A stretch of 57,792 nucleotides of DNA from a virus (taxonomy: Duplodnaviria; Caudoviricetes). Positions 16,366-57,792 of this stretch are shown here, one piece after another. Each line of letters starts with the position of its first letter. Positions within the stretch are counted from its first letter, which is position 1. The position numbers were made by a program, and so were the translations under genes. The notes below the pieces were generated by a model. The model made no database searches. It saw nothing but the letters and a program-made list of their open reading frames with translations, and was not told where the DNA came from. Location: the IMG/VR virus record IMGVR_UViG_3300043420_000463, positions 1 through 57,792 of that record, one strand, 5' to 3'.

Positions 16366-19300
16366 TCAGCTGAAGTCTGTGTTACCTTGTCCAAATACCT
16401 GGATAGTTCCAGATCCGTCCTTGATGATAATGAATGTTAAGATGTCAGTGTTGTTTGTTGGCGTTGGTGGTGAACCTCCAGACCATTTTACACCGTTGGT
16501 GACATCGTTACCATCTACACTACAGGCATCTCCGTAGAGAGCAGATGTGTTGGAATCTAAAACTAGAGTTAGAGTTAAAGACTCACCATTATTTAGACCT
16601 ACGTTGGTGAATGCCCACTTGCTAATTGCTGCTGCTGTTGGTGTACCACAGATCGTGTTAGATGTAGCAGTATTAATTGTAAGAACACCAGAACCATCGG
16701 GTGCCAATGAAGTACCAAAGTTATTGTCGTTACTCTCTTTAATTCTTCCGCCAAATGCTGCCGCCCCAGAAACAGTTAATCCAGTTAGTGTGCCGACAGA
16801 TGTTAACGAAGAATTAACAACGGTTGTTCCTAGAGTAGTTCCACTTAGTAATACTGTACCTTGGATAGCGATGTGTCTATTTGTTTTAATCTCTAAGTTT
16901 TCTGAGAAGACCCAATACTTATCTGTTCTTGTGTTGTCATATAGAATTGTTTTGTTTGTGGTGGTTCCTTTGAGAATTAATCCACCTCCATTAGCTGCTT
17001 CATCAGTTGGACCTAGTGCTTCAAATACAGCAGTTCCACTAGCACCACTGACAGCATTGGAAAGCTCTACGATACCATTTTCAGTGTCTACACTGACAAC
17101 TCTTGTTGTTCCTACTGGCAAAGAAGTGCCATTGATTACATTCACTGTCATTCCAGGAACAACACCAGTCAAAACTTCTACATTGGTGACAAAAGTACTA
17201 CCACTAGTTACGTTGCCAGCAAACTCTGCTAGTTGAACTGCTGCTAACTCTAGAGCATTATCGTCAATTTGGATGTTTTGTACATTAATAGAAGTAGTTG
17301 TACCATTAACTGTGAGGTTTCCGTCAACTGTTAAAGCTCCTCCGACATTTAAATTATTTTCAATAGTTACATTGTAACCATTATCACCTCTAATCCATGT
17401 GCCTGCTACTCTACTTCCAGAAACTTCAGTGGCACTACCAATAACTAATTGATTGCTGCCTCCAGAACTTGGTGGAGCATACGTTGGACCATTGAGAGAA
17501 TTGATTGGTCTTCCACTACCAATTAAAACATTACCGTTGCCAGTCATATTATAACCAGCAAAGGCACCGATACAAACGTTATCATTTCCGTTGATAGCAC
17601 CATACATGGCACTATTACCAACAGAAACGTTGTTATCTCCACCTTCTGAGTTTAAGCTGGCATCTTTACCAATAGCAACATTATTATCTCCAACGTCAGA
17701 AAGTCTCAGTGCTCCATCACCGATAGCAACATTACCTAAACCAGATACGTTTGATGCTAAAGCTTGGTATCCAACACCTACGTTTTGAGAACCGCCTTGG
17801 TTTGCTGATAAAACTTCAACTCCAAAAGCAGTGTTGCTAGCAACGGCAGAGTTTCCTCTGCCAACTGTCATTGGATTGTTACTGGTTCCACGGATAGTGA
17901 TGTCAGCACTATCAAAATTAGTAACACCGTTTACTAATAAGGTATTACCATCGTTGGTATTTAAGATAACGTCTCCATCTACATCAAGATTGTGTTTGAT
18001 GGTTGTTGTGCCTGTAGCAGCACCCATGTTAATAGCAGTAGCAGCACCGAAAGCATTGATAGTAGTTGCTGTTCCGTTAAATACCCCAAATGATGTTGAT
18101 GTTGTATTGACACCAGTAATGAACACTGGAGTGGTGTTAAATACAACAGCACCGTTACCAGTAGGATCACTTAACACACCTCTAAGTTGGGTTGATGTTG
18201 TTGTTGAGAAATCACCTAAGTTGTTAGATGAATACCTAATGACAGCACCAGCTCCACCACCATTACCGAAGTTTACGGTTGCCCCATCAGTACCAGATAG
18301 TGTTACAGAATTATTTACTGTTAAAGTTTTTTGATCAGCAAAGTCTAGGGTAGAACCAATACAACTAGAAATAGTTAGACCATTAATTGTAGTGTTAGTT
18401 ACAGTACCAATGTTTGTTGTTCCTGTAAAAGATGCTCCTGATAGAGTCTTGTTTGTCAACGTCTGTGTTTCTGATTCTGTAACTAATCTTCTAGCAACTC
18501 CTCCATTATCTAATGTTCTGAAGTACCCACCACTTTCAAACCATTGGAGTTGAATCCATGTTTGTACTACTCCTTCCGAGTTTGAAGTTCTGTTGATTTG
18601 AATGCCACCATTGGCTCCAGTTAAACTAGCACCTTTTCTTAGTTCGATAATGGGATCTGCAACTTGTAGAATGGTACTTTCTAATGTTGTTGTAGAACCA
18701 GTTACATTTAAATTGCCGTCAATTGTTACTGATGTTCCATTGTCACTAATTAAACTATTAACTAATTGGGTATTAGCACCATCCCATTTTAATAGAGTTT
18801 GATCTACTAGAGAACTGGCATTCTTTAATTGGAATTCGTTATCTGATAAAATGATGCCGTTATTAGCGTCAAGCCCTGCTCCAGTATCTGTATTTGTTGC
18901 CGAGATATCAATAGTTACTACTCCAGTATCTGGATCAGTTGTTTGTGTTAACTGAGCAGCACTAGACGCTGTAAATCTAAAGTCTCCAGATGCTAAAGCA
19001 AACGTACCATTACTAGCAACAGATCCTATCTTAGTAATTGTATCTGTATTGAAGGCATCAATTTCAATTGTGTTGCCATTTTGGACAACAGAAACTGAAC
19101 TGTCTCTATGTGATCCTCCGATTAAAGTTACATCGGTATTAGAAGTTCCTGTGTTTGATGGGACAAAAGTTCCAGATGCTCCACCTTTAATTCTGGTTAC
19201 AGTGTCGGCAGAACTTATGGTAATTTCTGGATCTCCAGTGGTTTGATTTGGAGACTGAGAAATAGTTGTAGCTCCAGACTGAAGAAGAGTGATGTTAGTG

Positions 19301-20046
19301 TTTGTGTTATCATTTGGTATGTAACTAGCAGAAGTTCCAACACGTAGTTTTGTTCTTGTATCTGTATCTGTACCATCAATTGTGATAGTAGTACCAGACA
19401 TGCTCACACTGGCAGCATTAATGCCAACGATTTCAATATCACCAGAACTAGGAGATCCTCCAGAAGCATTCAAAGTTGTAATTGTATCAGCATCTTCTAC
19501 TGTTCCTGAAATTATAATGCTGTCTTCATCTCTGGTGATCTGTAAGTCTAATCCTTTGTATCCAGATGGTATGCTTGAAGGGGAAGAAACGGCAATCTTT
19601 ACATCATCAGTTCCGCTACCAGATCCTCCAGCAGTTAATCTGATAATTTTTTCGTTGGCATTGATAGCATCTACTGCCGAAACACTATATGTTGTGTTAT
19701 TATCTGGTGTAATTATTGTGCCACCCAAATTAACGGTGGTTCCATTAATATTAATACCTGGATTAATTAAAGCACTGTTTGGTATATTTGTTATTGTATT
19801 AGTTGATCCAGAAATAATACAAGTTTCGAAGATTTTATTGGTTACTGTTTGTGATGCAGTTAGATATACATCTCCAGGATCATCCCAGGTAACAACACCA
19901 CCATCACTCTTGAGGTATTGTCCACTGGTTCCAGTGTTTCCATTGACGGCAATGCCATTGCCAGTCAAATCTAAATTGTCTCCCGAAGACATCTCTTCAA
20001 TCTTTCGGGAAGTCTCGTTAACAATTAACGGAAAGCGGTCTGCCAT
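16366..20046 (-). CDS. Tail fibre-like protein (1226 aa)
   Basis: Thr/Gly-rich fibre repeats, NVAIG..AL (YadA-head-like) repeats, SSLTSVGTLTGL motif. Confidence 0.8.
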   Translation of the reverse strand: MADRFPLIVNETSRKIEEMSSGDNLDLTGNGIAVNGNTGTSGQYLKSDGGVVTWDDPGDVYLTASQTVTNKIFETCIISGSTNTITNIPNSALINPGININGTTVNLGGTIITPDNNTTYSVSAVDAINANEKIIRLTAGGSGSGTDDVKIAVSSPSSIPSGYKGLDLQITRDEDSIIISGTVEDADTITTLNASGGSPSSGDIEIVGINAASVSMSGTTITIDGTDTDTRTKLRVGTSASYIPNDNTNTNITLLQSGATTISQSPNQTTGDPEITISSADTVTRIKGGASGTFVPSNTGTSNTDVTLIGGSHRDSSVSVVQNGNTIEIDAFNTDTITKIGSVASNGTFALASGDFRFTASSAAQLTQTTDPDTGVVTIDISATNTDTGAGLDANNGIILSDNEFQLKNASSLVDQTLLKWDGANTQLVNSLISDNGTSVTIDGNLNVTGSTTTLESTILQVADPIIELRKGASLTGANGGIQINRTSNSEGVVQTWIQLQWFESGGYFRTLDNGGVARRLVTESETQTLTNKTLSGASFTGTTNIGTVTNTTINGLTISSCIGSTLDFADQKTLTVNNSVTLSGTDGATVNFGNGGGAGAVIRYSSNNLGDFSTTTSTQLRGVLSDPTGNGAVVFNTTPVFITGVNTTSTSFGVFNGTATTINAFGAATAINMGAATGTTTIKHNLDVDGDVILNTNDGNTLLVNGVTNFDSADITIRGTSNNPMTVGRGNSAVASNTAFGVEVLSANQGGSQNVGVGYQALASNVSGLGNVAIGDGALRLSDVGDNNVAIGKDASLNSEGGDNNVSVGNSAMYGAINGNDNVCIGAFAGYNMTGNGNVLIGSGRPINSLNGPTYAPPSSGGSNQLVIGSATEVSGSRVAGTWIRGDNGYNVTIENNLNVGGALTVDGNLTVNGTTTSINVQNIQIDDNALELAAVQLAEFAGNVTSGSTFVTNVEVLTGVVPGMTVNVINGTSLPVGTTRVVSVDTENGIVELSNAVSGASGTAVFEALGPTDEAANGGGLILKGTTTNKTILYDNTRTDKYWVFSENLEIKTNRHIAIQGTVLLSGTTLGTTVVNSSLTSVGTLTGLTVSGAAAFGGRIKESNDNNFGTSLAPDGSGVLTINTATSNTICGTPTAAAISKWAFTNVGLNNGESLTLTLVLDSNTSALYGDACSVDGNDVTNGVKWSGGSPPTPTNNTDILTFIIIKDGSGTIQVFGQGNTDFS

Positions 20047-20078: not shown

Positions 20079-20101
20079 TATTTATAGGGGTCGTATTTAT
20101 A
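20079..20101 (-). promoter_or_regulatory. Tandem T4 late promoters
   Basis: Two perfect TATAAATA on the minus strand (20079-86, 20094-101). Confidence 0.8.
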
Positions 20102-48313: not shown

Positions 48314-48386
48314 GCTCCTTTAGCTATCTGGTGAAAGCAGCGAACTCATAATTCGCCTCAGGTGGGTTCGATCCCCTCAAGGAGCA
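48314..48386 (+). tRNA. tRNA with CAT anticodon (elongator Met or Ile2)
   Basis: GCTCCTT/AAGGAGC acceptor, GCGAA-CTCATAA-TTCGC; paired 1-72 so not initiator. Confidence 0.85.
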
Positions 48387-48390
48387 CCTC

Positions 48391-48462
48391 GGGAGATTAG
48401 CTTAGCGGTAGAGCATTCGACTGATAATCGAAAGGTCGCTGGTTCGATTCCAGCATTTCCCA
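48391..48462 (+). tRNA. tRNA-Ile(GAT)
   Basis: GGGAGAT/ATTTCCC acceptor, loop CTGATAA. Confidence 0.93.
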
Positions 48463-48463
48463 C

Positions 48464-48492
48464 TTGACAGTCTTGGCAGCAAATGCTATGAT
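48464..48492 (+). promoter_or_regulatory. Sigma70-type promoter
   Basis: TTGACA-N17-TATGAT with TG extension. Confidence 0.7.
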
Positions 48493-48505
48493 TGTCTCAT
48501 CACCT

Positions 48506-48589
48506 GGGGAGGTGGTGGAATCGGTAGACACACCAGACTTAAAATCTGTTGGGCATATGCCCGTGGGGGTTCAAGTCCCCCTCTCCCTA
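48506..48589 (+). tRNA. tRNA-Leu(TAA)
   Basis: Loop CTTAAAA, long variable arm GGGCATATGCCC. Confidence 0.95.
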
Positions 48590-48621
48590 TTCCACATAAA
48601 TAATAATGTGTGGAAAACAAC

Positions 48622-48888
48622 ATGAAATATACTCTTTCCCAAGCATATAGATTCTACATGGGTCAAGTTGTAAGAATGTATTTCATTCAAGGCATACCAT
48701 ACACCTTTGATGAACTTCCACAACTTGTACAAGATCATCCATCTGTACAAACTCAAGCATTAGAAGGTCATGATTATGATGATGATGAGCTCTATCAAGC
48801 ATCAAATTATTTGGTGGCAGAAGAGTGTCATCCTTTAATGTTTGAAATTGAAGTAGATAATCCCACCCTATTACCTCAAGATGATTGA
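48622..48888 (+). CDS. Cyanophage hypothetical protein upstream of cpcT/cpeT
   Basis: ATG 48622; VVRMYFIQGIPYTFDELP. Confidence 0.8.
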   Translation: MKYTLSQAYRFYMGQVVRMYFIQGIPYTFDELPQLVQDHPSVQTQALEGHDYDDDELYQASNYLVAEECHPLMFEIEVDNPTLLPQDD

Positions 48889-49405
48889 AATTTTTCGTGA
48901 ATGGTTAACTGGATCTTTTGAAAACAAAACCCAAGCATTCTCGTATCCTTCTAGATATGCTATGATTAGGGTAACACATATTCCTTTATGGGGTGAGTTT
49001 TTTTATGGTGAGCAAGCATATAGTTATCAATCGAAGAAACCATATCGTCAGTTTGTCTTGTGGCCCACTGTAAATGATAATGGTATCAAAATTTTAAATT
49101 ATGAAATTGAAGCAAAAGAACAGTTTGCTGGTTGTAAAAACCTTGACAAATTGACCAAAGAAATGCTAAGATTGAAAAATGGTTGTGATGTCAACCTTAC
49201 ATTTGATGGAACTTCTTTTAAAGGGGGGTTGACAGGATGTGATTGTTATGTAAAATGGAATGGTAGAGATACATACCTCCAGAATGAGATTGAACTTACT
49301 TCAACTCATTATTATGTGAAAGATCTCGGATTTTGCCAGAAAAATCACCATCAAATTTGGGGATCTAAGTATGGCAGATTCGAATTTAAAAAAATGCCTG
49401 AGTAG
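48881..49405 (+). CDS. cpeT: T-type phycobiliprotein lyase (CpcT/CpeT family)
   Basis: GSFENKTQA...P, FYGEQAY, PYRQ, GCD, DLGF, QIWGS..G.FEFKK. Confidence 0.9.
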   Translation: MIEIFREWLTGSFENKTQAFSYPSRYAMIRVTHIPLWGEFFYGEQAYSYQSKKPYRQFVLWPTVNDNGIKILNYEIEAKEQFAGCKNLDKLTKEMLRLKNGCDVNLTFDGTSFKGGLTGCDCYVKWNGRDTYLQNEIELTSTHYYVKDLGFCQKNHHQIWGSKYGRFEFKKMPE

Positions 49406-49469
49406 CTCAGCTGGATAGAGCAACGGTTTTGTAAACCGTAGGTCGTCGGTTCAAGTCCGACCTTAGGCT
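49396..49469 (+). tRNA. tRNA-Thr(TGT)
   Basis: GCCTGAG/CTTAGGC acceptor, loop TTTGTAA. Confidence 0.95.
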
Positions 49470-49552
49470 TTGGCAGTAATGCCAACTTCTACTACGGGTA
49501 TCTTCCGTAGCGTCGTATGGGAGTGGTTGGAAATGTCCGAATGCTCCCACCT

Positions 49553-49624
49553 CCTCTGGTAGTCTATTGGTAAGGACAGGTGGACAACACACATGGATAC
49601 TGGGTTCGATTCCCAGACAGAGGA
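49553..49624 (+). ncRNA. tRNA-like element with non-canonical anticodon arm
   Basis: CCTCTG/CAGAGG acceptor, D arm with GG, CTGGG-TTCGATT-CCCAG T arm; no standard anticodon stem-loop. Confidence 0.7.
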
Positions 49625-49674
49625 AAAGAACACCCCTCAAGCCTATCAACGATGCTCAAACAGAGGGGTCACTA

Positions 49675-49757
49675 GTCGGTATGGCGGAATTGGTAGACGC
49701 GCTGGGTTTAGGTTCCAGTGTCCTTGCGACGTGGAGGTTCAAGTCCTCTTACCGACA
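49675..49757 (+). tRNA. tRNA-Leu(TAG)
   Basis: GTCGGTA/TACCGAC acceptor, loop TTTAGGT, variable arm. Confidence 0.95.
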
Positions 49758-49836
49758 TATACAGGTAAAATTTACTTTTCAAATACCTAAAACTGGGAAA
49801 AAATTTTCCGCTAAAAATTTGGCAAAAAAGTTGAGT

Positions 49837-50436
49837 ATGATCAGAACATTTAATAATTTTGCTCCTGCTGCTTTAACTGATCTTGTTGAGCAAATATGTA
49901 AAGATACCAATTTTCCTTACACTATAGGAACAGAAAGTTTTGGTACGGTAACCTATGACCCCAGTAGTCTTATGGAAAAAGACTATAGGGTAGTAGATTG
50001 TCAGCAATTTGTTCATATTCTTGCTCATAATGGAATTCCGTATTCTCCATATTTTCACTTATTTTCTAATCTAATAGAATGTGTAATTGAAAAATATTTT
50101 CCAGAAGAAACAGACCTTGGAATTATTAGATCCAAGGTTAATATTCAACCACAGCAAAAAATAGTTGATAAAGATGTATTCTTCAATCCTCCTCATATTG
50201 ATCCTGGCGGCATTGGAACCATTGTTGCTTTATATTATGTTGAAGATAGTGATGGTGATACGTTCTTCTTTAAGAAAAATGGAGAAATCTCAAGACGAAT
50301 TTCTCCTCAAAAAGGAAAATTAGTGTTATTTGATGGAAGCATATATCATGCTTCAAGTCCACCTCAAGACCATAAATCTAGGATTGTTATCAATACAAAT
50401 ATCGATAAATCACCAGATATCTTAAAAATACGATGA
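49837..50436 (+). CDS. 2OG-Fe(II) oxygenase superfamily protein
   Basis: PPHID...YHASSPP..RIVIN; start moved to ATG 49837. Confidence 0.85.
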   Translation: MIRTFNNFAPAALTDLVEQICKDTNFPYTIGTESFGTVTYDPSSLMEKDYRVVDCQQFVHILAHNGIPYSPYFHLFSNLIECVIEKYFPEETDLGIIRSKVNIQPQQKIVDKDVFFNPPHIDPGGIGTIVALYYVEDSDGDTFFFKKNGEISRRISPQKGKLVLFDGSIYHASSPPQDHKSRIVINTNIDKSPDILKIR

Positions 50437-51023
50437 TTAAAGTATATGACGATCTGATACCAGAAGCATTAGTTGACGTTTTGGAAAAAATGCTTCTATG
50501 TAACACATTTCCTTGGTATATTTCTACCGCTGGTCTTTCGTCAGTAAATTATATTGAGAGTGGGTATAATAATACCGTAGATTCGCCACAATTAGTCCAT
50601 CCTATAATTATTAACGGCACTCCCGAATCTGCTATGTATTCGATATGTGCTAGTATGCTTTCTAATTTTTTTGGAACAGTTATCCCTTACAATTATAGTA
50701 AAAATATTATTCTTTCGAGGATGAAAGCAAATTGTCAGATAAAACAATATTGTGATGAATCAAAACACAATCCTCCTCATTTAGACTATAGTGATAGGCA
50801 GCATGATATGAAAGTATGCTTATACTACGTTTCTGATTTTGATGGAGACACATATTTTTTTGAAAATTATAAAATAGTTGATAAAGTTTCTCCGAAACGT
50901 GGTAGAATGGTGGTATTCGATGGAAATATCGTACATGCTTCTAGTCCTCCTAGAAATTCTTCGGTTAGAGTTGTCATAAACACTAACTTATTCATGCCTT
51001 GTCGGGTTGAAGACCTTGTATAA
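50433..51023 (+). CDS. 2OG-Fe(II) oxygenase, tandem paralog
   Basis: PPHLD...VHASSPP..RVVIN. Confidence 0.85.
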   Translation: MIKVYDDLIPEALVDVLEKMLLCNTFPWYISTAGLSSVNYIESGYNNTVDSPQLVHPIIINGTPESAMYSICASMLSNFFGTVIPYNYSKNIILSRMKANCQIKQYCDESKHNPPHLDYSDRQHDMKVCLYYVSDFDGDTYFFENYKIVDKVSPKRGRMVVFDGNIVHASSPPRNSSVRVVINTNLFMPCRVEDLV

Positions 51024-51026
51024 ATA
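51019..51026 (+). promoter_or_regulatory. T4 late promoter
   Basis: Perfect TATAAATA 39 nt before ATG 51066. Confidence 0.8.
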
Positions 51027-51065: not shown

Positions 51066-54000
51066 ATGGCTCTTACAAGACTTGATAATCTGTACTCAAG
51101 CAAGACTGGCAAATACTTATACGTATCTCCAGACGATTTTAACGCTACTGATGAACTTGATAACAGAGGTAATTCTCCTCTACGTCCATTCAAGACAATC
51201 CAGCGTGCTTTTATTGAAGTAGCAAGATATTCATATCTTCCTGGACAAGACAACGATCGTTTCGACCAGTTCAGCATCATGCTGATGCCTGGTGATCACT
51301 ATATTGATAATAGACCTGGACTAGTAGATATTGAGTCTGGTGATAGACAGCGTTATTATGATGCTAAGAACCTAATTGATGCCAACCGTCAAGAGATTAT
51401 TGACAGAGCATATGCCGAAATTACTGTAAGATATGACGAGAGTCTTTGGGGAACTGATTGGGTGGTTCCTGGTGATCCAGTAGATCAAGATAAAAATAGA
51501 TATTATGATGCCTATCGTTTGATTCAGTGGAATAGAGAGTATATTCAGGCGAGATCTACTGCTCAAGTAGCAATTGATTATCCAGATTTTTATTTTCCAG
51601 ATGAACCACAACTTGATTCTGCTAGCAGATTTGCCGATGCTTATCGCTTAATCCTTCAGAACAAACAAAATATTGTAGATAGAGCATGGGACAATACTGC
51701 TCTTGCTTATCCTTCCATTGTTACTACACAATCAAAGTGTAAGAGAGATTTAGGTTATTACGTAGAGCACCTAGCACTTGATTTGTTCTTTGGTGGAAAT
51801 AAGTGGACTAGAGAATTTATTCTTCAGTATTTTGATGCTCAAGGAAATCAAATTAGTAATGGTTTGGATGGAGAAGAGACCGAATCTAACTATGCTTTTG
51901 AAGCAGCTACAGAATTTATGAAAGCTGCTTTGACAAATCAAAGCAGCGTAACTGTTAATGGCACTGTATATGATATTACATCATGGACTAAAGATTTAAC
52001 AGTAACTGCTGATTCTGCTACTGGATCTAATGTAAGTCCTGCTTCTTGCTCTAATGTTCAGACTACACTCGATAACTTAACAACAATTGTTACCGATGTA
52101 TTTCTTGCTGGAAACCTGAGTGGTCTTCCTGATGAAGATGCTGGTCAACCATCAACTGGAAAGTCTAAGTGCTTTAGAGATATTGGATACTATATCGATG
52201 CTATTTCACTTGATATTTCTCTTGGTGGTGGTAACGTATACACTAGAAAGTATATTCAAAACTACTTCAATGCTTCTGGAACTGCTTGGATTGATGATGG
52301 TCTTCAAGGTGAAGAGCAACAGTCTATTGCTGCTTTCAATGTAGCAAGAGATTTGATGAAGTCGGCAGTTGCTAATCAACTTGGTTATAAAGATCTAACC
52401 TTGACTGACAGTGGTGATGACAATCAGGCTGAATATACTAGTGGCGATTGTGCTAATGTACAAACAACAATTAACAATCTAGCATTAATTATACAAACAT
52501 ATTTCCTTCAAGGAACCCTAGAAAATTTCGTACCAGAAGTTGTTGCTGATACACAACCTGGAGAAAGCAAGTGTAAGCGTGATATTGGTTATATTGTTGA
52601 TGCTGTTGCTGCTGACTTGAATAACGGTGGTAACGCTAATATCGTTGCTGCTGCTAAGTCTTACTTTGATAAAAATGGACTTCCCATCAGCAACGGATTG
52701 CTCGGTGAAGAGTCTCAATCTGTTATTGCTTTCAGTTATGCTGGAGTAATGATGAAGAAAGCTGTAACCAACCAGCTTTATAGAAAGGACTTAACTATTC
52801 TCTCTGGTCCTGCTGAGTATGCTGGATATGAGACTGATGAATCTTTTGTACCAAATCTTCCATCTGGCAATTCTGCCACTTGTATTGATGTACAAGCATC
52901 AATTGACAACCTAATTGGTATTATTACAACTGTAATTGAAGAAGGTGATCTAACAAGTCTTTCTTCTGTTGCTATCACTGGTGATATTCCAGTATTTAAT
53001 TATAATAGAGCATTACAGGAATGGCAAGATAACTCTATTCTAGATCTTTCCAACCCAGATAACGTTTTATACAAATTTAATGCTTCTAGTGGTGGTGCTA
53101 TCGTACCTAGAGGTTGTTCTCTAATTGGTTATGACCTTCGTCGTACTATTGTTCGTCCTCTGTATGTTCCAGATCCTGCTGATGGAACTCAGGCAAGAAC
53201 TTCTATCTTTAATCTAACTGGTGGTTGCTATTTGTGGCAATTTACTATTAAGGATGGTGATCTATCCTCAAACTCTCCACTATTTGATCCAGTTGCTAAT
53301 GTAGGTAAAGTTTACTTCCAGGCTGGCAATAACAGCACTCTTGCTATTCCAGAGTATTCTCACCACAAGATCACGATCATGACCTATGCTGATAGGGATG
53401 ATCTAGAACTGTACTATGATAAAGTTGGAAGAGCATTTGCTTTATTCCAACCATCTATTGATGATGGTGATCTGGAAGCACTTCCACAGGAAAATAGAAT
53501 CGTTGGTCCTCTATCTGATACTAGAAGTATTGTAAAACTCAGACTTGCTGGACAAACTGCTTCTGGCAAAACAATTATTGAAGCCACAACTAAAGTTGCT
53601 CATGGATACTTTAGAGAGCAGTATGTTGCCATTATCGACAATGGTCTTGATGAAGGACTAAATGGTACATTTAAGATTACTTCTATCTCAGATACAGATC
53701 CAAAAGTATTCAGTTATGAAGTTGATCTAACCCCACAGCAGTTAGGTTTAGACATTAATGAAACTGGTTATAGTGTACCAGATTTGAGTCTATCTGCTAG
53801 AGCACAGGCAGAAATTGACTCTGTTGAGTCTGCTTCTCCATACGTCTTTAACTGCTCAATTCGTTCCACCTGGGGTCAGTGTGGTATGTGGGCAGATGGA
53901 TCGAAGGCGACTGGATTTAAGTCGATGGTTGTTGCCCAGTACACGGGTGTTTCCCTACAAAAAGACGACCGTGCCTTCATCCGTTATGATGAGTTTAGCA

Positions 54001-57000
54001 ACACTTGGAACCAGGCATCACTAACTGACGCTTTTGCTACTGTTGCTTATCACACCAAGGGCGATGCTTATTGGAAGGATGACTGGAGAAACTTCCACAT
54101 TCGTGCTTCTGATGACTCGTTTATTCAGTGTGTTTCGGTCTTCGCTGTTGGATTCTTCGATCACTTCTTGATGGAGTCTGGTGGTGACATGTCGATCACC
54201 AACTCTAACTCGAACTTTGGTAATACTTCCCTACATGCTATTGGTTTCAAAGGATTCTCTTTTAACCAGGATAAGGGTGGTTACATTACTGATATTGTTC
54301 CTGTTAAAAAAATTGATACTAGTGAATTTAATCTAAAGGATCTTAAGTACTATCCTCTTTCTAACCAGGCAACCAAAGCAGATGGTAATAGAACCAGACT
54401 ATATTATAGTGGAGATAATGTATATACTCCATTCTCAAAACCAGCAACTTCTATTGATGGATATAGACTTGGCGCTAGAACTAATGATAAACTGTTCTTA
54501 AAACTACCAAAACTTGGTGGTGGAACTGATTTCTATGAAGCAACTGTTTCTCCTTCTGGATTTAAAAAGTATACAGCTTCTTTAGAAACTTTAACTCCTG
54601 CTGGAATTGCTATTGATAACTATGCTCAAGATGCTGCTAATTTGATTGAATCCAACAAAGCATTCATTCAAAATGAGGCGTATCTTTATATTATTACTAA
54701 ATACCCAGAACTTCAAACAAATACCAATATTACTATTGCTAAGTGTGAAAGGGACATCGGTTATTTTGTAGATGCTGTTGTTCAAGATTTGAGACTTGGT
54801 GGTAATATTAACACTATTCAAGCAGCAGAAGGATATTATGTTGGTGGTCAACTAGCATACATTGAGCAAGAACTTAACGAGTCTATTGAGGCATACGATT
54901 ACGTTAAGAATCTCTGTATTGCTGCTATGAGGAACTTTGATTACCTCATCAGAAACTGTGAAACTGTACAGGGATCTTCAATAATTAATGTTGGCAATAC
55001 TCAAGGATTGCTCATTGGTATGAAAGTCACCCAGTATGATTACAATACAACTAATTTCACCAATGGTAGACTTAATAGAGATGCTGCTGTACCAACACAA
55101 TTAAACCCCGCTATTCCAGCTGGTGCTTATATTAAGAGAATTATTAATACTGAAGAAATTGAAATTGGTAATAGTCGCCCATCTTTGACAGTTGATGAAA
55201 ACGGTAGAGTATCTGCTGCTTTCGGTACATCTGTAAATGCTTTAATTACAACAAATACTGGAACATATTTACATTTTGAATTACCACAAACAGATTCTTT
55301 AACAGATAGTGAGGATGTACTTTCTGGTTCTTTCTCAAGCACCAATGCTGTAAGAGATAGTGAAGTTCTTCAAGATCTTGCAGTTTGGGAACCTGCTGGT
55401 GATGATGGATATCCAGAGTGTGTTAATGTTGCTGCCACGATTCAGGATTATTTTGTCAACATCTTTTTAATTCTCAACAACGGATTAACATCTCTTGGTA
55501 TCACTGAAACGGAGTCTACCAATCAGATTCTTCTTAACAAAGAGTTTATTGCTAATGAAGCAGTAGCAAGAATGCTTTTAAATCCAGCAAATTCTGAATT
55601 TACGATCCCTGGCGGAACACAAGCATATGTTGATGATGTAATTGAAGCTCTAGAAGCATATGCTTTTAATATCAAATTTGGCGGTAATGATAGAGTTTAC
55701 GATATTGCTAGAGTTTATGTAACACAACCTGGAGCAATCCAAGGTCAAAGATCTGAGTTGGTTGAAGTTTATACTAACATGAGAACTATTGCTACAGAAG
55801 TAGTTAGAAACGAAACGGTAGGAATTGCTGGATCTCATGGTTTAACTCAAATTCTAGATCCAACTCCAGTTCTAGACGAAGAAGGTTTGGATGAAATTGC
55901 TTTAACTATTACTAATCTTACAGCGATTATCAGTCAAGGTATTGGTACTGAGCAGAATCCAGGAAATCTACAGGGTATTACTAGAACTGAGCCATCTTTC
56001 AATGTTGTTGATCGTGTAGAACCAATTGTAGACACTGCTAATCTTGCTGCTAGAGCTACTCTGTTCACTATCAATACTGGATCATCCACATCAGATCCTC
56101 ATTACTTTGAAACTGGAACTCCTGTGAGACTAGTTCCCAAAGTTCGTGATGGTGTAGATCCAACCACTGTTGATAAGCGTGTAATTAGACTTCCAAAAGG
56201 ATTCTCTACTAACACAATCTACTATGTAATCGCTCCTGGTAGAACTACTAGACCAGAAGATTATTCGAATGGTGCTGATTATCCAAACACATTTACTAAT
56301 CAGTCCGCCACTAAGTTGATGTTGGCGACTACCAAAGAAAATGCCGCTGCTGGCATCTACATGTATTCGCCTGAAACAGAGTCTGTAGATGAAAATATTG
56401 AAATTGAACTTCAGCAGTATGTTCTTGATGAAACATTCGGATTACATCAATATCTCTGTAATTTTGGTTCTGGTCTAACCGATGTTGTGGAAACTGATGT
56501 ACCACATATTTTTGATGTTCCTCTTGATCTAACTGGTTACGATCCAGTTGTACAAAAAGTTTTCTTTAGAACTTTTGGCGATCCTTCTGAGTCATCATTG
56601 CCACAAATTACGGTAAACAATGTAACCACGGAAGTAAATCCAAATCAATATTATTATGTTAGATTTGTAACTCCTAAGACATTTGCTGTATTTAATACTG
56701 AATCTGAAGCTGTTGCTGGAACTCCTAGAATTACATTTGCTCCTGGATTTGGACAAAACTTCTACGTCTTTGCCGATAAGCGTGTCTCTCCTGTGAGATT
56801 TGATGCTACTAGAGATGATAGTGCTTTACTTCCAGACAACAGAGAGACAACTACTGGTCAATGGTACATTCAAACTACTGATGCTTATGATCCTGCTGTA
56901 AATATTCAGGCAAGGATGAATGAGATTGGTGAAGATCTCAAAGATGCTAGATCTAAGAACACCTTCTACCAGAGACTTGAAGATGAAAGGGGTGCCGAAG

Positions 57001-57792
57001 ATAGAATCTATCGTCTACGTTACGTTATTCCTGAGTATTCGGAAGGTGTACGTGATCCTCTAAATGGTTTTGTTCTCAAAGCGAGAACTGACGAGACTAG
57101 AAAACTACTACCACAGCGTATTGTTTTAAAACCAGTTGCTGCTGGATCTGCTTCTGTTGCTAGATTTGAGATTCAAACTCAATTAGCTGGTGGTGGTACA
57201 ATTTCACAACAATTAGGATTGCCAGATTCTGAACTAAACTCTCAGTTCTCATATGATCCTTACAATGTAAATCAAGTTAAGATTGTTGGTAGTGAGAGAA
57301 CAGATTCTAAGACATCATTTAGTATTCAATCTGCTAGAAAAACTGAAATTGCTGGTACTGAGTATCTAGAACTTACAGTATTCGACCTTGGAATTACTGA
57401 TGATGCTGTTAGAAATGAGCAGTTTGTAACTGTTAAGATTAATTCTCCTCAGGGCGGCGCTTTTAGAATTAATACTTCTACGAGCATTGAGAATAACAGA
57501 ATTACCTGGAATGGATTCTCTTCTGGATTTGGTTATCTTCAGGGATACTTTAATCCAGATGGAACCGACGAGCATTACTTAGTTATCAAAGGTCTGGATG
57601 AAGATGTGATTGAATACAACAGCAATGTTGCTACTGTATTCTCACAACCTGTTCTAGATGCTGATAATGATCCTGTTCTCGACGGCGAAGGTAATCAAGT
57701 TTTAATCTATGCTACTTTGCTAGCAAAACCAAATAGCGTAGGATCTCCAAATAATTCTCTCAGTAAGTCTGATAGAAGAGATTATCTGTACA
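51066..57792 (+). CDS. Giant late (probably virion) protein, at least 2242 aa, truncated by the window; beta-helix-type scaffold with phycobiliprotein-like helical inserts
   Basis: Manual translation MALTRLDNLYSSKTGKYLYVSPDD...PFKTIQRA...; no stop in the parts translated, and absence from the ORF track fits an unclosed frame. Confidence 0.9.
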   Translation, partial: MALTRLDNLYSSKTGKYLYVSPDDFNATDELDNRGNSPLRPFKTIQRAFIEVARYSYLPGQDNDRFDQFSIMLMPGDHYIDNRPGLVDIESGDRQRYYDAKNLIDANRQEIIDRAYAEITVRYDESLWGTDWVVPGDPVDQDKNRYYDAYRLIQWNREYIQARSTAQVAIDYPDFYFPDEPQLDSASRFADAYRLILQNKQNIVDRAWDNTALAYPSIVTTQSKCKRDLGYYVEHLALDLFFGGNKWTREFILQYFDAQGNQISNGLDGEETESNYAFEAATEFMKAALTNQSSVTVNGTVYDITSWTKDLTVTADSATGSNVSPASCSNVQTTLDNLTTIVTDVFLAGNLSGLPDEDAGQPSTGKSKCFRDIGYYIDAISLDISLGGGNVYTRKYIQNYFNASGTAWIDDGLQGEEQQSIAAFNVARDLMKSAVANQLGYKDLTLTDSGDDNQAEYTSGDCANVQTTINNLALIIQTYFLQGTLENFVPEVVADTQPGESKCKRDIGYIVDAVAADLNNGGNANIVAAAKSYFDKNGLPISNGLLGEESQSVIAFSYAGVMMKKAVTNQLYRKDLTILSGPAEYAGYETDESFVPNLPSGNSATCIDVQASIDNLIGIITTVIEEGDLTSLSSVAITGDIPVFNYNRALQEWQDNSILDLSNPDNVLYKFNASSGGAIVPRGCSLIGYDLRRTIVRPLYVPDPADGTQARTSIFNLTGGCYLWQFTIKDGDLSSNSPLFDPVANVGKVYFQAGNNSTLAIPEYSHHKITIMTYADRDDLELYYDKVGRAFALFQPSIDDGDLEALPQENRIVGPLSDTRSIVKLRLAGQTASGKTIIEATTKVAHGYFREQYVAIIDNGLDEGLNGTFKITSISDTDPKVFSYEVDLTPQQLGLDINETGYSVPDLSLSARAQAEIDSVESASPYVFNCSIRSTWGQCGMWADGSKATGFKSMVVAQYTGVSLQKDDRAFIRYDEFSNTWNQASLTDAFATVAYHTKGDAYWKDDWRNFHIRASDDSFIQCVSVFAVGFFDHFLMESGGDMSITNSNSNFGNTSLHAIGFKGFSFNQDKGGYITDIVPVKKIDTSEFNLKDLKYYPLSNQATKADGNRTRLYYSGDNVYTPFSKPATSIDGYRLGARTNDKLFLKLPKLGGGTDFYEATVSPSGFKKYTASLETLTPAGIAIDNYAQDAANLIESNKAFIQNEAYLYIITKYPELQTNTNITIAKCERDIGYFVDAVVQDLRLGGNINTIQAAEGYYVGGQLAYIEQELNESIEAYDYVKNLCIAAMRNFDYLIRNCETVQGSSIINVGNTQGLLIGMKVTQYDYNTTNFTNGRLNRDAAVPTQLNPAIPAGAYIKRIINTEEIEIGNSRPSLTVDENGRVSAAFGTSVNALITTNTGTYLHFELPQTDSLTDSEDVLSGSFSSTNAVRDSEVLQDLAVWEPAGDDGYPECVNVAATIQDYFVNIFLILNNGLTSLGITETESTNQILLNKEFIANEAVARMLLNPANSEFTIPGGTQAYVDDVIEALEAYAFNIKFGGNDRVYDIARVYVTQPGAIQGQRSELVEVYTNMRTIATEVVRNETVGIAGSHGLTQILDPTPVLDEEGLDEIALTITNLTAIISQGIGTEQNPGNLQGITRTEPSFNVVDRVEPIVDTANLAARATLFTINTGSSTSDPHYFETGTPVRLVPKVRDGVDPTTVDKRVIRLPKGFSTNTIYYVIAPGRTTRPEDYSNGADYPNTFTNQSATKLMLATTKENAAAGIYMYSPETESVDENIEIELQQYVLDETFGLHQYLCNFGSGLTDVVETDVPHIFDVPLDLTGYDPVVQKVFFRTFGDPSESSLPQITVNNVTTEVNPNQYYYVRFVTPKTFAVFNTESEAVAGTPRITFAPGFGQNFYVFADKRVSPVRFDATRDDSALLPDNRETTTGQWYIQTTDAYDPAVNIQARMNEIGEDLKDARSKNTFYQRLEDERGAEDRIYRLRYVIPEYSEGVRDPLNGFVLKARTDETRKLLPQRIVLKPVAAGSASVARFEIQTQLAGGGTISQQLGLPDSELNSQFSYDPYNVNQVKIVGSERTDSKTSFSIQSARKTEIAGTEYLELTVFDLGITDDAVRNEQFVTVKINSPQGGAFRINTSTSIENNRITWNGFSSGFGYLQGYFNPDGTDEHYLVIKGLDEDVIEYNSNVATVFSQPVLDADNDPVLDGEGNQVLIYATLLAKPNSVGSPNNSLSKSDRRDYLY

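Follow-up and report, generated by a model that had tools for sequence, protein, structure and literature searches.

Phycobiliprotein-derived domains with putative bilin-site cysteines in a giant fibre- or baseplate-associated protein of a T4-like cyanomyovirus

The 57,792-base IMG/VR virus record IMGVR_UViG_3300043420_000463 (estimated completeness ~30%), analysed over its whole length and referred to as the window, comes from a T4-like cyanomyovirus and ends in a giant gene on the + strand (open reading frame, ORF, 51066..57791), of which 2242 amino acids (aa) are visible and whose 3' end is open and continues past the window. The product is a giant virion protein, fibre- or baseplate-associated as far as database labels tell, with five globin-type domains derived from phycobiliproteins (PBPs). 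Judged from its sequence, it has a K-C-x-R-D bilin site at the Cys82/84 position of PBPs in four domains, and a second cysteine at what may be the place of beta Cys153 in three. That these cysteines carry covalently attached bilin, with the product of a neighbouring cpeT gene as the lyase for the second site, is our preferred reading, to which we give a little less than an even chance. In the features of the gene given below, Cys1 denotes the cysteine of the C-x-R-D motif, Cys2 the later second cysteine, and nt nucleotide positions in the window.

51019..51026, + strand: T4-type late-promoter word TATAAATA (from sequence; position only)
51066..57791, + strand: giant, putatively late structural gene, 2242 aa seen, orthologue of S-PM2p218 (translation, PHROG 4527, S-PM2 annotation)
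51339..51458, + strand: outer helix hairpin, aa 92-131, profile positions 3-35 (hmmsearch E 2.8e-4)
51486..51611, + strand: inner helix hairpin, aa 141-182, profile positions 2-38 (hmmsearch E 1.7e-4)
51615..52145, + strand: complete PBP-like domain 1, aa 184-360; Cys1 aa 225 (nt 51738-51740), Cys2 aa 328 (nt 52047-52049) (Pfam PF00502, AlphaFold, structural search)
52125..52547, + strand: remainder (helices E to H) of PBP-like domain 2, aa 354-494; Cys1 aa 369 (nt 52170), Cys2 aa 462 (nt 52449) (hmmsearch E 4.3e-45, profile positions 33-165)
52530..52979, + strand: remainder (helices E to H) of PBP-like domain 3, aa 489-638; Cys1 aa 503 (nt 52572), Cys2 aa 606 (nt 52881) (hmmsearch E 7.4e-50, profile positions 36-165)
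54609..55091, + strand: complete PBP-like domain 4, aa 1182-1342; Cys1 aa 1227 (nt 54744), Ile in the Cys2 column (hmmsearch E 5.1e-50)
55491..55988, + strand: complete, cysteine-free PBP-like domain 5, aa 1476-1641; Tyr at Cys1, Asp at +3 kept, without Cys2 (hmmsearch E 7.9e-28 to 4.8e-27)

The motif C-x-R-D-x-G-Y lies at nt 51738, 52170, 52572 and 54744 (aa 225, 369, 503 and 1227), exactly where an initial annotation made by a model from the letters and ORF translations had placed it, and all flanking strings quoted there are present in the translation. A later second cysteine, claimed in that annotation for each of these four copies, was found in copies 1-3 (aa 328, 462 and 606, in one column reading S/T/D-C-x-[ND]-V-Q), but copy 4 has Ile there, and its later cysteines, Cys 1284 and Cys 1298, fall in other alignment columns. 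A DA..LI..N segment had likewise been described with each of the four motifs; four such segments exist (at about aa 100, 149, 192 and 1192), but those at about aa 100 and 149 are isolated helix hairpins that precede copy 1 instead of adjoining copies 2 and 3. The fifth copy, said to lack both cysteines, was recovered as a profile match at aa 1476-1641, with Tyr at Cys1 and no Cys2.

Against Pfam PF00502, the giant protein scored 36 bits (E 8.5e-9), over the 22.2-bit cut-off, with the best stretch at aa 184-257 matching profile positions 26-108 of 155. When single copies were scanned, copy 1 passed at 25.4 bits, copy 4 stayed below the cut-off at 17.2 bits, and no match was reported for copies 2, 3 and 5 alone. 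Single copies were also compared with all PDB sequences using phmmer: for copy 1 (E<=10), the 28 matches were 27 phycocyanin alpha chains and one acyl carrier protein, and for copy 2 the 36 matches were 34 PBPs and two chitodextrinases. In these alignments Cys1 was placed on alpha Cys84 in 'KC.RDIGYY', and 'GKSKCFRDIGYY' of copy 2 on 'GKSKCARDIGYY' of a solved phycocyanin; the alpha-84 alignment that the initial annotation had given agrees with solved phycocyanins residue by residue, and the whole profile is more beta-like. A profile of 54 sequences (A1; copies from the window and from IMG/VR) gave 87 PDB matches at E<=1, of which the best 60 are PBPs except for one 'bacterial fluorescent protein', with beta subunits ranking top (best E 7.2e-4). 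Positions 2-63 of A1 align to beta residues 33-101, with Cys1 on the Cys of 'AACLRD' and the hairpin Asp, which aligns with beta Asp39, on the Asp of 'DAVNRI'. No solved phage structure in the PDB with a PBP-like domain was returned by this profile search.

The structure of domain 1 (aa 184-360) was predicted by AlphaFold2 on A1, with a predicted local distance difference test score (pLDDT) of 96.9 and a predicted template-modelling score (pTM) of 0.92. Foldseek of this model against the PDB gave nothing at E<=0.001, and among the rows listed all were PBPs bar one 'bacterial fluorescent protein' (template-modelling scores 0.52-0.66). A wide structural search, independent of Foldseek and covering 48,161 chains, matched the model to phycoerythrin beta (5aqd_M) at Z 16.1 and a root-mean-square deviation (rmsd) of 2.2 Å over 145 aa (chain residues 30-184). 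PBPs or ApcE filled the eight best rows; allophycocyanin and the bilin domain of ApcE were among those that followed at Z 12.2-13.9, and non-PBP globins scored Z 10.5 or below. A look-up of copy 1 in the ESM Atlas gave no usable match. The fold is phycobiliprotein-like, as had been proposed before any structure was modelled, and the five domains are established as PBP homologues with the PBP fold and by true descent; they are beta-subunit-like and appear to be without the usual N-terminal X/Y hairpin. No prior account of PBP-like domains in phage virion proteins was found in a literature search that reached few subscription journals, and the initial annotation had likewise known of none.

The giant protein matched PHROG 4527, labelled 'short tail fiber protein', with 2877 bits; a Pfam scan found no fibre domain in it. 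Its gene sits among tail and baseplate genes and is orthologous to S-PM2p218 of phage S-PM2, where a separate gene annotated gp12 follows directly. Elsewhere, proteins with these domains are annotated as 'structural protein, putative fiber' in Syn9, 'gp7 baseplate wedge subunit' in P-HM2 and 'virion structural protein' in P-TIM40. By database annotation and PHROG label, the product is thus classed as a virion fibre or baseplate-associated protein.

Conservation was assessed over 261 distinct domain copies from 80 related loci (IMG/VR, retrieved with copy 4). Cys1 is present in 246 of the 261 and the Asp at +3 in 257, both positions ranking within the six most conserved of 168 columns; Arg at +2 is found in 195, the three G-G-N positions are kept in 224, 242 and 258, and 179 copies have a hairpin, whose Asp is retained in 173. 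Cys2 is present in 176 copies, and Ile stands there in 53. Counted jointly, both cysteines occur in 169 copies, Cys1 only in 77, Cys2 only in 7, and neither in 8. A disulfide, which the initial annotation had raised as another use of the cysteines, was considered within the domain as the cause of their conservation, and since 77 copies have Cys1 without Cys2, an obligate Cys1-Cys2 bond is excluded. In 84 long ORFs from the same 80 loci, the x of x.RD.G[YF] is Cys in 182 of 182 occurrences, and of the 16 cysteines in the giant protein, 9 lie in its 864 domain residues, with 7 of those at the two sites. Both sites recur in the distant genomes Syn9, S-RIM2, ACG-2014a, P-RSM4 and P-TIM40, where the domains lie in structural proteins of 6000-7350 aa and frequently have Asp or Thr at +2. 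The predicted bilin-binding residues, namely those that bind bilin in PBPs, are strongly conserved in the phage domains.

The family was then followed through larger collections. Using tblastn against 50,697 phage records, copy 4 (E<=1e-3) matched 398 records, all 398 being Synechococcus or Prochlorococcus phages, records named 'Cyanophage', or one marine single-cell virus, and copy 1 (E<=1) matched 331 records, all of the same cyanophage kind. Foldseek against BFVD gave 21 matches at E<=0.001, the named ones being Synechococcus phages and the others 'uncultured Caudovirales phage' or nameless. Searching the profile against 1.84 billion representative proteins yielded 1462 at E<=0.001, and the best 150 of the 1462 are giant multi-copy proteins (479-7903 aa, 3-36 stretches each); this list carries no taxonomy and says nothing on phages of non-phototrophs, and looking up 10 clusters of distant members gave zero informative names. 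In these searches the family was matched, going by record names, only in phages of bilin-making hosts, and in the host-range check that the initial annotation had asked for, homologues came up in cyanophages alone. Of the four refuting outcomes named in that annotation, three were checked (on fold, conservation and host range), and none of these checks spoke against the idea. Three representatives (P0057, P0163 and P0139) are fragments of PBP-like giant proteins on 1.4-5.5 kb contigs labelled as Nanopelagicaceae or Minisyncoccia metagenome-assembled genomes; these are probably mis-binned phage DNA, and they hint that the family occurs in fresh water too.

For the arrangement of the domains, a hidden Markov model (HMM) iterated from the copies over the 80 related loci was used, which gave seven matches in the giant gene and zero elsewhere in the window. 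In order, these are two hairpins, complete domain 1, two remainders starting at about profile position 33, and complete domains 4 and 5. The numbers of hairpins, complete domains and remainders are 2+1+2 in this gene, in S-CAM3 and in S-RIM32, 1+1+1 in S-PM2p218, and 3+1+3 in the S-PM2 gene at 55 kb, so that hairpins and remainders balance in 5 of 5 arrays examined. A 561-aa model of the region (aa 85-645; pLDDT 83.7, pTM 0.85) was predicted, and its pTM agrees with compact packing; in a structural search with this model, all listed chains aligned to the central complete domain only. Since hairpins and remainders balance and the pTM is high, we infer that the first three domains form a nested array. 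Given the order of hairpins, complete domain and remainders, domain 1 seems to sit within the B-E loop of domain 2, and domain 2 within that of domain 3, the outer hairpin presumably being the N-terminal part of domain 3 and the inner hairpin that of domain 2. The representatives P0009, P0007 and P0006 have 30-36 matched domain stretches in 4800-6400 aa, far above this gene.

Upstream of the giant gene, the window encodes a homologue of a bilin lyase:

48881..49405, + strand: cpeT, CpeT/CpcT-family (T-type bilin lyase) gene, 174 aa (Pfam PF06206)

The product scored 135 bits against PF06206 (E 2.6e-39, cut-off 21). The gene is on the same strand as the giant gene, 1.7 kb upstream of it, and is followed by two 2OG-Fe(II) oxygenase genes (window 49567-51023) and then by the giant gene; in related loci the oxygenase genes are two, single or absent, with one in S-PM2. 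It lies within a tRNA cluster (window 48314-49757; tRNA-Met, Ile and Leu at 48314-48590, tRNA-Thr at 49396-49469, tRNA-Leu at 49552-49625 and 49675-49757), and two of these tRNA genes overlap the TTG start of ORF 49567-50436, so that this 2OG-Fe(II) oxygenase gene probably starts later.

The adjacency of the two genes was examined from both sides. Starting from the giant gene, 66 of the 80 loci retrieved with copy 4 show its N-terminus, and cpeT was found upstream on the same strand in 32/32 loci with at least 2300 bp upstream, 18/21 with 1200-2299 bp, and 0/13 with less, with gaps of 251-2352 bp between cpeT and the giant gene and CpeT identities of 33-81%. Starting from cpeT, the best 80 of 302 matching IMG/VR stretches were taken, and of the 59 loci that extend 4 kb or more beyond cpeT on its downstream side, 58 carry PBP-like domains there on the strand of cpeT, with none elsewhere within 10 kb. 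The exception (L155) has 4596 bp downstream of cpeT, without PBP-like domains or the giant gene N-terminus. BLAST with the CpeT of the window matched 78 phage records only. Short CpeT-like ORFs that pass Pfam (145-160 aa; a 224 aa open frame in Syn9) were seen in cyanomyoviruses without a BLAST match, and since Pfam finds ORFs that BLAST misses, cpeT-like genes are more widespread than BLAST indicates.

For co-occurrence, 26 genomes were searched whole with the domain and CpeT models. Both were found in 19, neither in 6 (P-SSM2, S-SM2, S-SSM7, S-CRM01, P-TIM68 and the podovirus P-SSP7), and one, ACG-2014f, was borderline, with partial domains and a CpeT match of 11 bits, below the cut-off. Among 10 myoviruses chosen by accession alone, 5 had both and 5 neither. 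On these genomic counts, the domain family is tightly linked to a T-type lyase homologue.

Gasper et al. in 2017 are said to have found that CpeT of P-HM1 binds phycoerythrobilin, without a demonstrated host target. The neighbouring gene of the window is of the same family as this cyanophage T-type lyase homologue, and according to a review (PMC10452541) T-type lyases serve the beta Cys153-type site and cpeT occurs only in myocyanophages. Sullivan et al. 2010 (PMC3037559) list cpeT in 12 of 16 cyanomyoviruses and state that its role 'remains unresolved'. The P-HM2 transcriptome paper, checked for expression timing, makes no mention of cpeT.

Adsorption data are available for some of these phages. 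Liu et al. 2019 (PMC6628666) report no dark adsorption for P-HM1 and P-HM2, adsorption in the dark for P-SSP7, and for P-SSM2 dark adsorption weaker than that in light, and suggest light-sensitive receptors or tail fibres as possible causes; work cited there describes the light-dependent adsorption of S-PM2 as independent of photosynthesis (see also PMC2984593). The domain and CpeT are present in S-PM2, P-HM1 and P-HM2, and both are absent from P-SSM2 and P-SSP7, so that the adsorption phenotype agrees with presence or absence of the domain in 5 of 5 phages having both kinds of data.

If the domains are chromophorylated, host- or phage-made bilin would be attached to their cysteines late in infection, with the phage CpeT-family lyase acting on the Cys153-type site, and the Cys82-type site acquiring its bilin autocatalytically or through host lyases. 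Chromophores would then be covalently bound to the assembled fibre, and the pigment could make the fibre light-responsive, which would explain at the molecular level why S-PM2, P-HM1 and P-HM2 adsorb in a light-dependent way. Such a role in adsorption we consider unlikely, and likewise the farther-reaching proposal that most T4-like cyanophage particles bear CpeT-attached bilins on fibre and baseplate proteins as an adsorption-gating photoreceptor, which would be the first known virion-borne light sensor.

Several results weigh against bound bilin. The stretch between helix B and the Cys is ~7 residues longer in PBPs than in the phage profile, and in PBPs this B-E stretch lines the bilin pocket. 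The pairing of Cys2 with beta Cys153 draws on stretches of -1.9 to -0.3 bits and on the place of Cys2 in the AlphaFold model, one residue before the last helix, and on no significant alignment. The +2 residue is Asp in 52 of the 261 copies, and Thr or His in some isolates. Outside the S-PM2-like group, CpeT-like and domain genes are 40-60 kb apart, and in a quick gp23 tree the five trait-less myoviruses fall in one clade of 8 (SH-aLRT 85) with S-SCSM2R, S-CAM7 and ACG-2014f, so that the co-occurrence needs only 2 changes, of which well-supported branches force 1. With pebS and ho1 (PMC3037559, Table 3) but neither domain nor cpeT, P-SSM2 shows that the presence of the domain does not follow that of bilin-synthesis genes. 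The adsorption comparison comprises 5 phages, two of them near-identical, and adsorption of P-SSM2 is itself enhanced by light; in the literature searched, no report of coloured or fluorescent cyanophage particles was found. The main rival explanation is that a host PBP gene was captured and reused without pigment as a rigid helical block for long fibres, with the Cys, Asp and G-G-N positions kept for folding or for contacts between domains or chains, such as disulfides formed after lysis in oxidising sea water, or metal binding, and with cpeT nearby through inherited gene order. In favour of such reuse are, besides the shortened B-E loop, the change of R to D at +2, the two or three evolutionary events behind the co-occurrence and the lack of a pigmented virion in the literature searched, the match of the model to cofactor-free globin folds as well (RsbR/stressosome N-domain, Z 10.5 and 8.9), the maintenance of copies without Cys1 (one in this protein, 15/261 overall), and the nesting and the up to 36 stretches per protein, which resemble a construction module. 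Against it, the best-kept positions (Cys1 and Asp +3) are those that bind bilin in PBPs, 77 copies have Cys1 but no Cys2, the searches turned up no member outside phages of bilin-making hosts, and the pairing with cpeT endures although CpeT drops to 33% identity and intervening genes come and go. We regard pigment-free reuse as a strong contender that nonetheless has clearly less than an even chance of being correct.

Two further explanations bear on where the domains act and on their origin. The domains might work inside the infected cell, prior to assembly or in soluble form, where they would lure away or soak up bilins, lyases or phycobilisome partners of the host and so alter its light harvesting instead of functioning on the particle. 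The domains appear to resemble beta subunits at both attachment sites, and infection is reported in a review to change host phycoerythrin content, with cpeT linked to the change (PMC2984593); however, the proteins that contain them are annotated as virion structural or fibre proteins in Syn9, P-HM2 and P-TIM40, the giant gene has tail and baseplate genes around it and a late-promoter word in front, and the domains appear to be without the X/Y hairpin that serves in alpha-beta pairing, so that an intracellular mimic seems very improbable to us. As to origin, a helical repeat could have converged by chance on the short C-x-R-D-x-G-Y, given that E-values against single PBPs are modest (profile best 7.2e-4), that Foldseek gave no PDB match at E<=0.001 and that identity to PBPs is 11-19%. 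Set against this are the passing of a curated Pfam cut-off, matches specific to one family, a whole-domain structural match of Z 16-17.6 at rmsd 2.0-2.6 Å, well over other globins, and the agreement of helix order and the apparent agreement of both site positions, which leave chance convergence with hardly any credibility.

Among known systems, the closest likeness is to PBP beta subunits (CpcB, CpeB and cryptophyte beta; PF00502), whose fold the phage domains share at Z 16.1-17.6 and rmsd 2.0-2.6 Å, beginning near residue 30 and running to the C-terminus, with Cys-x-Arg-Asp in a helix aligned with helix E, an Asp in the preceding helix, and a second Cys just before the last helix. Unlike these subunits, the phage domains seem to have no X/Y hairpin of their own, have a B-E loop ~7 residues shorter and 11-19% identity, and are repeated and nested in a viral protein of >2242 aa with a tail-fibre-type PHROG label. 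The single domain aligns from chain residue ~30, and alignments of the 561-aa model reach residues 3-16 via the preceding hairpin helix. Given the virion context, phycobilisome-type alpha-beta trimers or hexamers are unlikely to be formed from the phage domains. The core-membrane linker ApcE (Z 13.9 to 4xxi_A, 12.2-12.3 to full-length chains) is similar in having a PBP-type domain, broken by an insertion, in a very large multi-domain protein, and bilin attachment in ApcE requires no lyase. Linker repeats follow its single PBP domain, and its place is in the phycobilisome core, whereas the phage protein has five or more in a virion protein. PDB 8u0f, 'Bacterial fluorescent protein' (beta chain), known by its entry title alone, ranks among the best structural matches at Z 16.8, rmsd 2.5 Å over 138 aa and 17% identity, with a profile E of 0.026. 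Cofactor-free globin-like domains (RsbR/stressosome N-domain, globin-coupled sensors) share the general fold (Z 7.5-10.5) and are a precedent for a pigment-free globin, but score clearly below PBPs and have no C-x-R-D site. The bilin biosynthesis-associated globins (BBAGs) of heterotrophic bacteria, likened here by description only, are bilin-binding relatives of PBPs that do not belong to the phycobilisome and whose genes are linked in the genome to those of bilin metabolism, and differ in being stand-alone cellular proteins; Rockwell, Martin and Lagarias 2023 (PMC10151467) call them 'self-assembling biliproteins', in an article whose accessible text mentions phages for PcyA and PcyX only.

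If the domains are chromophorylated, the virus particle would be pigment-bearing, and the domains would be a new PBP branch at work outside the cell; if they are pigment-free, they would still be a clear example of a phage taking over an antenna protein of its host and, by nesting, turning it into a construction module of the virion. The finding also bears on why cyanomyoviruses carry cpeT without the rest of the lyase operon, cpeT gaining a substrate if the bilins are CpeT-attached, and on the cause of the light-dependent, photosynthesis-independent adsorption of S-PM2, P-HM1 and P-HM2.

Elsewhere, the window codes for psbA, psbD, gp32, baseplate and tail proteins and a gp5-like protein, and its nearest isolate is S-PM2 (82% DNA identity across 22% of the query). 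The late-promoter word TATAAATA at 51019-51026 (+) stands 40 nt 5' of the ATG of the giant gene. The initial annotation had called this a perfect late promoter; the word is in place, but it is no commoner in the window than chance (4 copies seen, 3.75 expected), and since the count matches chance expectation, its position alone argues for a late promoter. Two further TATAAATA words lie 15 nt apart at window 20079-20101 (-), directly upstream of ORF 16366-20046 (-), another giant gene (1226 aa), without a Pfam match. In the GenBank record of S-PM2 (AJ630128, 163800-177600), 16 tRNA features are given coordinates inside the coding sequence of S-PM2p218; ARAGORN found no tRNA within the orthologue in the window, and the coordinates are probably a slip in the GenBank record.

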